A stretch of 64,000 bases of DNA, taken from the NCBI GenBank assembly GCA_039802605.1, contig JBDRWW010000001.1, positions 64,001-128,000 of the forward strand. The letters run 5' to 3'. Position numbers: made by a program. This stretch comes from a candidate division WOR-3 bacterium (GTDB lineage Bacteria > Hydrothermota > Hydrothermia > LBFQ01). Of the stretch, positions 33,001 through 39,000 are shown piece by piece (the first letter of the stretch is position 1; every line of letters begins with the position of its first letter).

Positions 33001-36000
33001 CTTTCGTCAAGGTTCATAATAGCCCAACTACTATCGTAATTTGGGTGATTTGCCACGGTATCTATAAGGTATCCTACGCCCAAGCCGTTTAGCCAGTTCT
33101 CAACGAGATTTTTTCTAAATTCTCCCCCATAAAAAGCCGCATAATGATATACACTATGGGCTCCAACCAATGGAACCGCGCATTTATAAGCCGGGTGTAA
33201 TGTTCCGGCTAACAGGTATTGGGTTATACCCATAGCGGAAAACCAAGAACCGCAAACCTTACCGGAAGACCAGCTCTGGGATATTATCCAATTAACCGCA
33301 TCGTATCCGTCCTGCAAATCGCCCCAACCGTCCGCGCGGAAAACGGAAGGCTCCCCTTCACTGCCCTGAAAACCCCTTAAACTCTGAATCACTAAGGCAT
33401 AACCCTTAACATCGGTTATGTAAGGGATAAAATAGTTTAAACCGACATCCGTCCGTCCATATGGGGTTCTGACAAGAATTGTATGGAGTCTCCCGGTATA
33501 AAATGTCGGTTTATATACATCGGTTGCCAACCTTATGCCATCCCTCATAGGAACCATATAAAACTCATGCGAATAAGTTGGCAAAACAATCCAAAGCATA
33601 TATGGGATTTTAAAGTTGAAACTTTTTCGCCATTACAATATTCGTTTTGTATGGTTCCGGAAAAATTGGAAGATTTTAGGGAATACGTAAGGGAAATAGC
33701 GGAGAAATATGCTAAACCCTGGTCCATGATCGTTGATAAAGAGGACAGATTTGCAAAGGAAAGCGTGGAAGCCGTGTTTAAAGCAAACTTATCGGGCGTG
33801 ATAATTCCAAAAGAGTATGGGGGTTTGGGCTTATCAACAAAACATTATGTGGTACTTATAGAGGAATTGACGAGGGTTTGCCCTTCAACGGCCGTAACCT
33901 TTGCGGTAACCTCCGGACTCTCCGCGGGTTTCTTGATAAATTTCGCATCGGAAGGATTAAAAAGGGAGTATTTACCAAAGGTTGCAAGCGGGGAGTATAT
34001 AGGGGCTTTTGGTTTAACGGAACCTTGCTGCGGTTCGGATGCGGGAAGTATAAGAACCAAGGCGGAAGAGGTTGAAGGGGGTTTTAGGATTTATGGACAA
34101 AAAATATTTATAACAAATGCATCCGTTGCGAAATTCGTTATAACCATGGCAAAAAGCGATCCCGAAAAGGGGAAAAACGGTATAACCGCCTTTTTGGTTG
34201 ATACCGACAGCTATGGATTTTCGGTTATTAAGAACGAGGATAAGCTCGGGTGGAGGGGTTCGGTAACATCCGCAATATCTTATGATGGGGTTTTTGTCCC
34301 CTATGAAAAGATCATAGGGAAAAGGGGTGAGGGTTTTAAGTACGCATTGGCCTCTTTGGATGCCGGAAGGATAGGGATAGCCGCAATGGGTTTGGGAACC
34401 ATAAAAAGGGCATTGGAAATTTCCTTGGAATATGTTAAGGGAAATCGCCTAATCAACAACGAGTCCTTTTCTTTCAGGTTGTCAGATCTCCATTGGATGT
34501 ATGAAACCGCAAGGGAATACACATTTAAGGCGGCGGAATTAAAGGATAGGGGTGAAAACTTTACAAGGGAAGCGGCAACGGCCAAATTGGTGGCTTCGGA
34601 ATTCGCCATGAAGGCTGTTAATATAATGTTGGATATTTTGGGACCGGATGGTGTTGTTTGGGGGGAGGCGGAAAGGTTGTTCAGGGATACAAAGATTTTG
34701 GAAATAGGTGAGGGAACGAGTGAGGTTCAAAGGCTCGTAATTTCCCGATCCCTTTTGTGATACCCGTAATCGTAGGCCCAACGGGTAGCGGTAAAACCGA
34801 ATTGGCAATTGATTTGGCGAGGAATTACGGTTTCATCGTTATAAACGCGGACAGCAGAAAGGTTTATAAATATCTTGATATAGGCACGGCAAAACCATCA
34901 AAAGAACAAAGAAAATTTTACCGTTTAATTGATATTCTGGAACCCTGTGAAGAATTCTCGGCTTATAAATGGGCGGAATTGGCGGAAGGGGAAATTGAAA
35001 ATTTGTTAAAAGAAGGCAAGAGGGTTATAATTGAAGGGGCAAGCGTTTTGTATTTAAAGGCCTTGTTTGAGGGTTTTTTTGAACATCCGCAAATACCAAA
35101 GGAAATAAGGGAACAGGCCAAAAGGCTCGCCGAATCGGGCGAAGGTTATAAAATACTTTTGGAAAGGGATGAGGAAACGGCAAAAAAAATTCATCCAAAC
35201 GATAAATACAGGATAAGTAGGGCCTTGGAAGTTTTGCTGGCAACGGGAAAACCGATATCCGCATTGAGAAAAGGGGGTAAAAGGCCGAAGTTTAAACCAA
35301 TTTATTTTTTAATAGACATAACGAGGGAAATACTTTACAGGAGGATAGAGGAAAGGGCTAAGGAAATGTTTGATAAGGGCTTGATTGATGAAACCAAGGA
35401 AATTTTAAAAAAATACCCGTGTTTTAAGGAATGGGGGAAAAAGGTTGTTGCGTACAAACAGGCCTTGGAGTTTTTAGAGGGCAAATACGATTATGAGACC
35501 GCAATTAGAAAGAAGGCAAAAGCGGATAAAGATTTGGCGAGGAGGCAGTTGAGGTTTATGAAAACCCTAAAACCCATAATAAAAATCCCTTTCAATCGTA
35601 AAGAACTTCTTCTATCGTTCCTCCACCTATAAGGTAATCGCCGATATAAAAAGCCACCCCCTGACCGGGGGTTGGGGCAAATTGGGGTTCTTGAAACTCA
35701 ATTAATGCATAATCCTCCAAAACCCTTACATTTGCCCTTTTCGTTGATATACCCGCCCTAACTTGAACATCCGATACGAACTCATTTCCGGGAAAATAAT
35801 GCCAATTTAAATCCGATGCCTTTATCCCCTTGGCCATAACGCCTTCAAGGTCATCAAGGATTATATCCCCGTTCTTAAAGGCCTTAACATAAACCCTTTT
35901 ACCAATGGCCACATTCAAACCCTTTCTCTGGCCTATGGTGTAATAAAAAGTTCCCTTGTGGGTTCCCACAACTTTTCCTTTATATATAAACTTACCCGGC

Positions 36001-39000
36001 TTTGCTTTTAACCCCCTTTCAATCAAAAAATTCCTGTAATCCCCATCGACAAAACATAAATCCTGAGATTCCGGCTTTTTGGCCGTAGGTAACCCCACTT
36101 CAAGTGCAAGTTTTCTAACCTCCTCCTTTGTCATATCACCTAAGGGGAATATAAGCCTTGGTATCCAATCCTTTGGTATCCGGAACATAAAATAGGATTG
36201 ATCCTTTTTCCTATCCCTACCCCTCATCATGAGTTCAACGCCTTCATAAGAGCCCTTCTTTATATAATGACCGGTTGCCACAAATTCCGCCCCTATTTTA
36301 TCGGCAAAATCAAACAAGGCCTTAATTTTGTAATCCCTATTACAAAAAAGACAAGGGTTAGGAGTTCTATTATTTGCGTATTCGCTTACAAAATAGCCTA
36401 TAATATCCCTTTTAAAGCCTTCCGAGTAGTCCAATTCGTGGAATTCTATACCCAATTTTATCGCCACCCTTTTTGCCAATTGTGCGGAACCTATACTGCA
36501 ACAGGCGTAAGGGTTTTTCGCCTCTTTATATAACAACACCGTAGCACCCACCACATCATAACCGCATTCCTTCAATAAATAAGCCGCTACGGAACTATCA
36601 ACACCCCCCGACAAACCGACTACAACCTTACCCCTCATCAACCCCTTCCTTGCCTGAATACTTGGGTCTCGTATGCTTATATGTTAGCAAAAGGGGTATA
36701 AACGCCTCTTTTATCCTCTCCAAATCCCCCCTTGAAAGCGGCACCCAATCCAACTGGCCATCCTTTAACTTGTCCTCAAAAACCCTATTTAAAATTTCCC
36801 TTATTTCCGACTCCTTCGTGACACTTCTTGAAGCCGCCTCAACGGAATCCGCCAGCATGACTATTGCCTCCTCTGGGGTTTTGGGTTTTGGACCGGGATA
36901 CCTAAATTGATCCTCGGAATATGGGAGCTTAGAAGCCTTTGCCTTCAAATAGAATGGCAATAATAGTGATGTTCCGTGATGCGATGCGATTATATTTATA
37001 ACCTCTTCGGGCAAATTGTGTTTTCTTGCCAGCTCTATTCCTTTTTTCACATGGGAAATTATTATCCTCGCGCTGTTTACGGGGTCGAGTTTATCATGCG
37101 GATTTTCGTCCCCAATCTGGTTTTCTATAAAATACTCTGGGTTAAATATCTTTCCTATATCGTGATAATAACCGCCAACTTTCGCCAATAAGGGATTGGC
37201 GCCCACAACCCTCGCGGCCGCTTCGGCCAAATGTCCCACGGCTATTGAATGGGCAAATGTACCCGGCGCCTTTTCGGATAATTCCTTTAACAATGGGTGG
37301 TCAAAGGATGACAATTCCAAAAGGGAGTATTCCGTAGTTTTGTGGAAAATCTGTTCAATATTGGGTAAGAAAAGGATATGGGCACTGGTAGAAACAAAAG
37401 AAGAGAGCGAAACCCATAATAACAGCTCCTTGAGGTTCTCAAATTCAAAGTAATTTACCTCTATAAACGGGGAGGAAACAAGGGCAGAAATCGTTCCGGC
37501 TATAAACATTAAAAGGATAATGTATATGTTTTGTATCCTCCTTTTAAAAACCTTTACACCCATTGAAGAAACGATGGCCATTGAGCCTATGTATAGGGGT
37601 ATGGTTAGCCCAAAATCGTAATTAACCCCCATAACAACCGCAAGGATCATGGTTAAACCTATCCCCAAGGTGGGTGTATCCAAGGAAGAGACCGATAGGG
37701 CTATTAATGGCGATAGCGTAAAGAAGGGGGAAAGGTTTGTAAAATGATGGATAAGCGTTTCAAGCAAAAATACCAAAGAGAATACGAATACCGAAGCGGA
37801 GGACGGAACATCCCACCTCCTAAGGTAAAAGCCTATGAATATAAATATCCCAAGTATAAAACATAGAATCGCAAAGGCTATTCTTTTGGGTTTTATGCTC
37901 GTTTCTTTATAAGCCTTTAAAATCCGCAAGGTGGTATCATTAACTATTTCACCGCGCGAAACCAAAACCTCACCCGGATTTATAACAAACTCTATTTTAC
38001 CTATGTTCTTCAACTGTAAATTTACATACTCACGGGTTAGGGAAGAATCGTAAACTATTGTCGGAAATATGAACATACAAAGGGTATCATCCCCCTCACA
38101 TATATCCTTCATTGAAGGGAAATTGGCCCCGAGGGCCGGCACATACTCTCCATTCTCGTATATCAATATTTGTCCGTTAAATTTTGGTTCTATTATACCC
38201 CTCTGCATAATCGCCAAAGCCTTTGTCCTAAATCTTTCGGTATTAGGTATAAACTTTGAGAGACTTTCGGATAATATCCTCAAAGAATCGTAAAATTCTA
38301 TCCTTCTATACACCAGAGGGGAAGAGTTGATGATTTCTAAGGAGTCTTGCCTTAGCCTTTCGGGAGATTTTTCAACGACGATTTTCCTGTTGGCTATAAT
38401 GGTTCTCTTTACAACATCCCCTATTTCGTAATTCAAACCGTCTTTGTAAAAGAAGCCACCCAAAGTTATTACGAGGGATATTATAAGGGCTTTAACTATC
38501 CTACTCACAAGCCGTGTTTTTCATAGGCCTCTATAATCTTTTTGACTATTCTATGCCTTGAAACATCTTCTTTTTCAAAATATACAAAACCTATACCCTC
38601 AATGCCTTGGAGTATATTTAAAGCCTCCGACAAACCGGATTTCTCGTTCTTGGGGAGGTCAATCTGGGTAATATCTCCGGTTATAACAACCTTTGACCTG
38701 GGACCTATGCGCGTTAAGAACATTTTCATCTGAACGGCCTTCGTATTTTGCGCTTCATCCAAAATTATAAAAGCATCGGAAAGGGTTCTACCCCTCATAT
38801 ACGCCAATGGGGCAATTTCCACTATCCTCGCATCCATCATGCGGCGCACCTTATCGTAAGGAACCATTGAAAATAGGGCATCGTATAGGGGTATGAGGTA
38901 AGGATAAACCTTTTCTTCATAAGTTCCCGGCAAATAACCCAAACTCTCACCTGCTTCAACGGCCGGACGGGTTAGTATAATCCTCTCAATCTTTCCCTCC

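Follow-up and report, generated by a model that had tools for sequence, protein, structure and literature searches.

The wobble base of several bacterial tRNAs is usually decorated by the MnmE/MnmG pair, and the C5 side chain matters most for the reading of G-ending codons. The known alternative is the Elp3 route to cm5U34, found in archaea, eukaryotes and a few bacteria. In E. coli, era overexpression suppresses an rbfA deletion. Among the GC-rich Actinomycetota, MnmA can be present with MnmE, MnmG and Elp3 absent and no known C5 route, a gene content shared by the family described here. Streptomyces albidoflavus J1074 is reported to have no MnmEG homologues and, by MS, no (c)mnm5U (PMC12772374), and M. 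tuberculosis is described as having MnmA without C5 enzymes (PMC10531406). In our C. glutamicum control genome MnmA was found, neither MnmE nor MnmG passed its cut-off, and the Elp3 model had no match. Among the Mollicutes surveyed in one study, MnmE and MnmG were lost together only in Mycoplasma suis (PMC4014445). A preprint reports that rbfA is conserved in >90% of non-CPR genomes, highly so in symbionts, and that era and rbfA patterns are complementary in some classes; its main text contains 0 mentions of "WOR-3" (bioRxiv 2024.11.29.625318).

The DNA analysed here (the window, 64,000 nucleotides) comes from a family of hot-spring bacteria in WOR-3 that comprises Ca. Caldipriscus and a second genus. 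It carries the following features:

6600..6686, + strand: tRNA-Ser(UGA), with U34 and serving a four-codon box
23026..23871, + strand: rsgA, 30S GTPase (TIGR00157, 197.7 bits against a cut-off of 100), retained without RbfA
23849..24457, + strand: trmH-like SPOUT methyltransferase (best match NF008295, 199.6 bits, under the 227 cut-off)
34757..35632, + strand: miaA, i6A37 (TIGR00174, 226 bits against 148.65), convergent with mnmA and overlapping its 3′ end
35592..36638, − strand: mnmA, tRNA U34 2-thiouridylase, 348 aa from ATG, present family-wide (12/12)
36628..38508, − strand: 7TM-HD hydrolase upstream of mnmA (Pfam HD, 7TMR-HDED, 7TM-7TMR_HD), not a tRNA enzyme

The mnmA gene named by the survey is intact and passes both curated cut-offs (NCBIfam NF001138, 357.2 bits against 284; TIGR00420, 292.5 against 236.95); s2U34 formation is predicted. 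The protein has the PP-loop SGGVDS, the CxxC of PNPCLFCN and the third Cys in ESQDLCF, the same motifs as in MnmEG-positive relatives, and no extra domain was found on it. Presumably it is of the Fe-S "C-type". A class V aminotransferase/cysteine desulfurase-like gene was found in the genome.

The partners expected for C5 modification were sought by a class-wide profile search of 64 genomes, 12 in the family and 52 others. The order holds 19 of them (the source family with 12 and a second family with 7), leaving 45 outside it, and all are MAGs, 57–95% complete. MnmG was over the cut-off in 0/12 family genomes against 45/52 others; the remaining seven comprise five with fragments and two with none (G052, G063). 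MnmE was over the cut-off in 0/12 family genomes, in 6/7 of the second family (both counts as surveyed before) and in 42/45 of the others; by PF12631 the figures were 0/8 against 164/180 other genomes of the phylum. Elp3, previously scored as absent from five genomes, was over the TIGR01211 cut-off in 0/64 class genomes, and in the family 0/12 matched even at E<=1e-20; four control genomes pass that cut-off. RsmG is likewise absent from the family (0/12, against 6/7 in the second family), and from two more families (0/4 and 0/3). Finer profiles were run on G000, the 41% GC genome from which the codon usage, radical SAM and domain-profile inventories come, and those for the MnmE N-terminal and helical domains and the MnmG insertion and C-terminal domains gave best E values of only 0.29, 2.5, 0.019 and 0.32.

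All 12 family genomes being MAGs, such absences could be artefacts of incompleteness or of sequence divergence, and single misses do occur elsewhere (MnmG in G052 and G063; MnmE in G024 and G028; RbfA in 4/45). We consider this explanation very improbable. Five control genes were recovered in 59 of 60 cases in the family (MnmA, IF2, L3 and Jag each 12/12; TruB 11/12). The order yidC-jag-mnmE is intact at 6/6 fetched second-family loci and also in five further families (f6, f7, f10, f11 and f12), while in the source family jag is followed by an OPT transporter gene in 11/12 genomes, the twelfth contig ending there, with no MnmE-profile match. An assembled junction in 11/12 genomes means that assembly gaps cannot account for the absence of mnmE. 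The MnmE miss in G028 coincides with a jag miss, as expected of an assembly gap, and the other five of five checked MnmE misses keep MnmG. Indeed, MnmG is present in all 8 examined of the 16 non-family MnmE misses in the phylum (including G024, G028 and G054), so a second MnmEG loss was rejected for those eight. Thus the artefact reading is largely refuted for MnmE, the jag-OPT synteny excluding it there, and the loss of both proteins claimed earlier stands at 0/12 each; the absences of MnmE and MnmG from the family are confirmed as real.

The exceptions to these absences, a piece of MnmG and an RbfA, both sit in G039, which has 7% contamination. The 223-aa MnmG piece was rejected as genuine, being 82–96% identical to its 14 best non-self matches, of which 11 are titled Desulfurobacteriaceae, Thermovibrio or Desulfurobacterium and three "uncultured bacterium"; it is a Desulfurobacteriaceae contaminant. 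The RbfA was also rejected, its contig being collinear with, and 66–85% identical in DNA to, a region in 5/5 Desulfurobacteriaceae genomes; a protein scan with this RbfA alone gave just three loci. The three 16S ends of G039 are likewise foreign. The earlier count of MnmG in 0 of 11 genomes therefore holds as to absence (0/12 full-length), and it had left the G039 fragment unmentioned; more generally, the earlier counts showed the same pattern with slightly different denominators.

RbfA, reported before in 1 of 18 order genomes against 37 of 39 others, was recounted in 1/19 (0/19 once the G039 contaminant contig is set aside) against 41/45, and so is missing order-wide. A profile of 30 class members reached only E 3.5 on six-frame ORFs of G000, while the same profile detects the foreign G039 RbfA at E 2.5e-14. 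In other families rbfA directly precedes truB; no RbfA-like ORF was found near truB at 18/18 order loci or near infB at 14 order loci. Divergence is a little more plausible as a source of this absence than for MnmEG, RbfA being about 100 aa, and a highly divergent RbfA would slip past sequence profiles. Era, KsgA and RsgA are over the cut-off in G000, YbeY is found by Pfam, and a RimP-like ORF lies ahead of nusA, recognized by motif only and with no NCBIfam match at E<=1e-30. As the second family likewise has no RbfA and has retained MnmEG, the MnmEG and RbfA losses are not one event; the two families were not recovered as one clade in the trees of this analysis. In the source family the GAUCA tail of the 16S carries a change peculiar to it (U1532A), which was rejected as a partner of RbfA loss because the second family, also without RbfA, keeps GAUCA in 6/6.

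Set against the known systems, precedents for either loss exist in other bacteria, and the surprise is moderate. The survey called these factors near-universal in free-living bacteria, which goes too far for MnmEG: MnmA persists in its absence in Streptomyces, Mycobacterium and Corynebacterium. The WOR-3 loss is nevertheless independent, in another phylum and a hot-spring habitat, and unlike the Actinomycetota the family includes a 41% GC genome in which AAA, GAA and UUA are heavily used and A-ending split-box codons are not rare. C. glutamicum, moreover, keeps RbfA and RsmG as judged by the control searches. Mycoplasma suis is alike in having lost both MnmE and MnmG from an MnmEG-positive clade, with RsmG reported missing in hemoplasmas, and differs in being a host-dependent parasite from a group in which RbfA is kept in all Mollicutes surveyed (PMC4014445). 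CPR/Patescibacteria are described as missing rbfA and rsmG (bioRxiv 2024.11.29.625318), as here, but the family retains Era, RsgA, KsgA and YbeY, and the CPR-type loss of era, rsmA and other GTPases was not found. That RbfA was lost outside CPR while RsgA stayed indicates a role for RsgA in addition to RbfA release.

How the family decodes was considered from a set of 46 tRNAs, among which the C34 isoacceptors for Lys, Glu, Gln, Arg, Gly and Leu are all found, as had been claimed. They were rejected as compensation for MnmEG loss, since 5/5 MnmEG-positive relatives have them too (patterns searched: Lys-CUU, Glu-CUC, Gln-CUG, Arg-CCU and Gly-CCC, with Leu-CAA outside the pattern); the same patterns are complete in 4/5 family genomes, G035 being without only an Arg-CCU match; were that tRNA truly absent there, AGG would have to be read by bare U34. 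Per 1000 codons, G000 uses AAA 40.3, GAA 43.2, UUA 26.7, GGA 18.6, CAA 10.9 and AGA 8.9, about 149 (about 15%) dependent on these tRNAs, with A-ending shares of 0.54 for AAA, 0.62 for GAA, 0.62 for CAA and 0.48 for UUA; only the second genus, which is GC-rich, has low shares. AGA avoidance, expressed as z from a regression on GC3 across 32 genomes outside the family (samples other than G000 of 1,400–20,000 codons; genomes related), is strong in G000, G034, G036 and G037 (−5.6 to −6.5); G035 stands at −1.2, and members of the second genus range from +0.1 to −3.6. It was not counted as a signature of the loss, being inconsistent across the family, and AGG preference is described as a thermophile trait (PMC6195531). 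No codon shift was seen in ribosomal-protein operons of five family genomes, and no family-wide codon signature of MnmEG loss was found. Codon reassignment was rejected, the standard code holding at all 31 codons tested in 117 alignments.

We consider it probable that plain gene loss without replacement accounts for the absences, a reading for which PMC10582724 is among the cited precedents. The family ancestor would have lost mnmE, mnmG and rsmG, with the OPT transporter taking the mnmE slot behind jag. tRNA-Lys(UUU), Glu(UUC) and Gln(UUG) would carry s2U34 only, and tRNA-Arg(UCU), Leu(UAA) and Gly(UCC) an unmodified U34 or, by an undescribed route, s2Um. The s2U34 and bare U34 tRNAs would read A-ending codons by Watson-Crick pairing, and the ancestral C34 isoacceptors AAG, GAG, CAG, AGG, UUG and GGG. 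RbfA would have been lost separately, probably earlier or independently; the 30S platform may be matured by Era, KsgA, RsgA and YbeY without it, and a cold-shock factor would presumably serve little purpose around 80°C. Weighing against plain loss are the heavy A-ending codon use of G000, in contrast to Actinobacteria, the lack of TrmL, and the absence of a codon signature across the family.

A different explanation is that an undescribed, unrelated enzyme adds a C5 or other restricting group (e.g., 2′-O-methyl) on U34, making MnmEG dispensable, which we judge unlikely. It would fit an organism that relies so strongly on the affected codons (about 149 per 1000) at high temperature, and it would fit the absence of TrmL: the genome has only two SPOUT (PF00588) genes, trmH-like and rlmB, and hence no TrmL, which is missing in 5/5 order genomes tested, so that no known safeguard keeps the bare U34 of tRNA-Leu(UAA) or Arg(UCU) from reading codons for Phe and Ser in error. 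Non-orthologous replacements are reported later in the pathway (bioRxiv 2023.12.21.572861), Streptomyces s2Um is made by an unidentified methyltransferase (PMC12772374), and several SAM methyltransferases in G000 are without assignment. Against this, a partial screen of about 100 G000 proteins (radical SAM, PP-loop, SPOUT, deaminase, rhodanese and motif-picked ORFs) yielded no replacement U34 enzyme. The six radical SAM genes are all assigned (MiaB, MtaB, HemW, LipA, QueE-like and a short MoaA-like), and no U32 peptidase was found in 5/5 genomes. A conserved 334-aa gene before tadA was rejected for its beta-propeller look-alikes and hydrophobic, lipoprotein-like N-terminus with Cys, and the rhodanese proteins matched neither the TrhO nor the SelU model. 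Streptomyces, furthermore, is reported to be viable without C5 groups by MS (PMC12772374).

TrmFO, an MnmG paralogue that methylates uridine C5, or a TtuA-like protein with a C-terminal rhodanese domain, both present, might have widened its target to U34 (m5U34/m5s2U34, or thiolated Arg/Leu tRNAs). This appears highly unlikely, given that the single, orthodox TrmFO scores 612 bits against a cut-off of 262 with the same weak paralogue match class-wide, that G032, which has MnmEG, carries the TtuA fusion as well, and that both enzymes are accounted for by m5s2U54, a thermophile T-loop modification. We also hold it doubtful that a third, undescribed route restricts wobble, be it a novel enzyme acting on U34 or a ribosome that decodes and matures without xm5U34, m7G527 and RbfA thanks to 16S changes around 1396 and 1532. 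The organism in question is a non-CPR hyperthermophile with 15% of its codons on these tRNAs.

With plain loss as the preferred reading, the family adds, from outside Actinomycetota, a dated, single-event MnmEG loss that can be set beside close relatives still positive for MnmEG, and the combined losses with heavy use of the affected codons make a good test of decoding without these aids. Because the organism cannot avoid A-ending codons and has MnmEG-positive relatives, it offers a natural comparison for how split codon boxes are kept apart in bacteria without MnmEG or Elp3, and whether another U34 enzyme exists. A search of sequencing runs pointed to hot-spring samples and was not used as evidence. 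Members are reported as abundant in some springs, at 21.55% of one community (PMC11696919), and tRNA could therefore be sampled.

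The genome that contains the window (G000:C1:64001-128000) amounts to 1.65 Mb in 23 contigs, with 90% completeness and ~41% GC. Judged by sequence, it belongs to the Caldipriscus family of WOR-3 (f1), and the closest named relatives of the MnmA encoded in the window are two Ca. Caldipriscus sp. proteins (72% identity). Caldipriscus is described as abundant in spring communities at 82-84 °C (PMC11696919) and as a predicted chemoorganoheterotroph (PMC12542636); we infer a free-living lifestyle. Comparisons covered 64 genomes of the class, namely 12 from f1 (two genera), seven from f2, a second family in the order to which f1 belongs, and 45 from other families. 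The IF2 phylogeny (23 rows) recovered f1 as a single clade (support 100/100) that joined one genome of another family, f3, at 97/97. It did not make f2 the sister of f1, and a 16S phylogeny (18 rows) did not resolve how the two are related. G035 is the deepest member of the Caldipriscus genus.

Window 35592-36638, minus strand: mnmA, an ordinary MnmA exceeding two curated cut-offs

This MnmA has the PP-loop and three catalytic cysteines, matching relatives that possess MnmE and MnmG, and the gene occurs in 12/12 f1 genomes and 63/64 class genomes. The survey's finding that MnmE and MnmG are lost from this family is confirmed. Neither exceeded its cut-off in any of the 12 f1 genomes, while MnmG did so in 45/52 other class genomes (fragments in five more, none in two) and MnmE in 6/7 f2 genomes and 42/45 of the remainder. 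Among 188 phylum genomes at least 90% complete, the MnmE helical domain was found in 0/8 from f1 and 164/180 others, and in G000 single-domain MnmE and MnmG profiles built from class members had no matches beyond other GTPases and TrmFO. Control genes were recovered in f1 (MnmA, IF2, L3 and Jag each 12/12; TruB 11/12). An N-terminal MnmG piece in G039, an f1 genome with 7% contamination, lies at the edge of a 3.1-kb contig and was rejected as contamination because it is 82-96% identical to Desulfurobacteriaceae-type records.

The strongest test of MnmE absence is gene position. The order yidC-jag-mnmE is intact in 6/6 f2 loci examined and in representatives of five further families; in 11/12 f1 genomes the mnmE slot behind jag is taken by an OPT-family transporter gene, and the twelfth locus stops at a contig edge. 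As f1 is one clade, a single ancestral rearrangement explains this junction.

Elp3, previously noted as absent from f1, passed its cut-off in 0/64 class genomes. Six radical SAM matches in G000 were all assignable, and no rhodanese protein tested matched TrhO or SelU. These results stand against an undescribed enzyme replacing MnmE and MnmG at U34, which we consider unlikely, although the screen was partial because only ~100 proteins in total were scanned. TilS, TadA-like, MiaA, MiaB, MtaB, TrmFO, TrmD, TrmB-like, TrmI-like, ThiI and QueG are present, along with a TtuA-like thiouridylase that carries a rhodanese domain fused at its C-terminus (G000:C2:26356-27684, plus strand, locus L158; also in G043, G044 and G032). 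U32 peptidase was found in 0/5 genomes tested and TrmL in 0/5 order genomes tested; the lack of TrmL is older, since both f2 genomes among them also lack it. The six radical SAM genes of G000 include neither RlmN nor RimO, and the MoaA-like ORF among them (C1:209818-210396) is just 193 aa long and perhaps a broken gene. In class genome G027, tadA has a MiaB/RimO-type neighbour; in G032 (contig C76, L378), the 309-aa open frame of a TadA-like deaminase carries ~160 additional residues at its N-terminus.

G000 uses the standard genetic code and has 46 tRNAs, with U34, C34 and G34 or A34 readers throughout, so the C34 isoacceptors listed earlier are indeed there. Because MnmEG-positive relatives have them equally, they are a precondition of the loss, and we rejected them as a response to it. 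A-ending codons of xm5U-class tRNAs number ~149 per 1000 codons in G000. AGA is strongly avoided in 4/5 Caldipriscus genomes but not across f1, AAA falls below the GC3 trend in 12/12 and GAA in 10/12 f1 genomes, and ribosomal-protein operons showed no further shift; these codon patterns are not counted as support. Of the Arg codons, 71% are AGG, and AGA supplies just 20% of AGR at GC3 0.43 (G000 whole genome; G034, G036 and G037 loci), an AGA share in these four far below that of relatives of similar GC3. G035 does not share this skew, and a tRNA-Arg(CCU) pattern found no match there.

Published cases of MnmA in the absence of C5 enzymes are M. tuberculosis (PMC10531406) and Streptomyces J1074, in which (c)mnm5U went undetected in repeated MS (PMC12772374), and M. 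suis is described as having lost both MnmE and MnmG (PMC4014445; pathway background in PMC13602947 and bioRxiv 2023.12.21.572861). Our C. glutamicum control genome, like M. tuberculosis and Streptomyces J1074, has MnmA without MnmE/MnmG. The most likely reading, which we hold to be probable, is that f1 underwent unreplaced loss and would work like this actinobacterial s2U-only system. As an observation, then, the original claim stands and has been tightened; its interpretation was only partly right. A literature search confined largely to main texts and openly available papers found no report of MnmEG or RbfA losses in WOR-3, and "mnm" and "rbfA" are absent from the main texts of PMC12542636 and PMC11696919.

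RsmG is likewise absent from f1 (0/12) and present in 6/7 f2 genomes. Three class families lack it (f1; f3, 0/4; f8, 0/3), and f3 is the family whose genome groups with f1 in the IF2 tree.

RbfA, reported missing from the whole order, had a Pfam match in 1/19 order genomes, compared with 41/45 elsewhere in the class. This sole match was rejected as foreign: the 4.8-kb contig of G039 that carries it is collinear with 5/5 Desulfurobacteriaceae genomes. An unfiltered profile of 30 class RbfAs gave a best E of 3.5 on G000, yet picked up the foreign G039 copy at E 2.5e-14. In other families of the class, rbfA directly precedes truB and ribF; within the order this operon is dispersed, and the order loci examined have no RbfA-like ORF beside truB or infB. 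Since f1 and f2 are not sisters by IF2 and unresolved by 16S, either one loss of RbfA or two may have occurred. RbfA loss has been described for CPR classes, with >90% conservation outside CPR (bioRxiv 2024.11.29.625318). G000 retains Era, KsgA, RsgA and YbeY.

Window 23026-24457, plus strand: rsgA, followed directly by trmH-like and tyrS genes

In G000 the translation operons are fragmented: an L5-like gene is isolated, and DUF503, truB and ribF lie far from infB.

G000:C3:47574-48131, plus strand: L5-like gene
G000:C5:54834-55130, minus strand: DUF503 gene
G000:C23:1962-2909, plus strand: truB
G000:C6:4516-5430, plus strand: ribF

G039 contigs C135, C58, C46, C97 and C129 are foreign and supply its MnmG, its RbfA and three unrelated 16S ends; this genome is best excluded when presence is counted. 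L3 matched only model positions ~55-202 in f2 and f3 (loci L070 and L351-L353, and f2 loci); its open frames in f2 are 307-354 aa long, which suggests an inserted or extended region.

The 16S rRNA of f1 is also altered.

G000:C3 ~80431-81975, plus strand: 16S changes (loci L323-L327 and L331-L335)

The tail reads GGAACACCUCC in place of GGAUCACCUCC in 9/9 genuine f1 copies and in 0/28 other class genomes (six f2, 22 others; three of the 22 have other variants). The change converts GAUCA to GAACA before the anti-Shine-Dalgarno, itself intact; GGAGG lies upstream of ~11% of 1145 starts. The f1 variants probably occur in other phyla as well. The Era KH domain is described as binding GAUCA chiefly via the G and two adenines (PMC10582724), all of which are spared. 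The tail change tracks the family, not RbfA loss. Furthermore, in 8/8 f1 copies U replaces A next to the decoding site, at position ~1396 in E. coli numbering.
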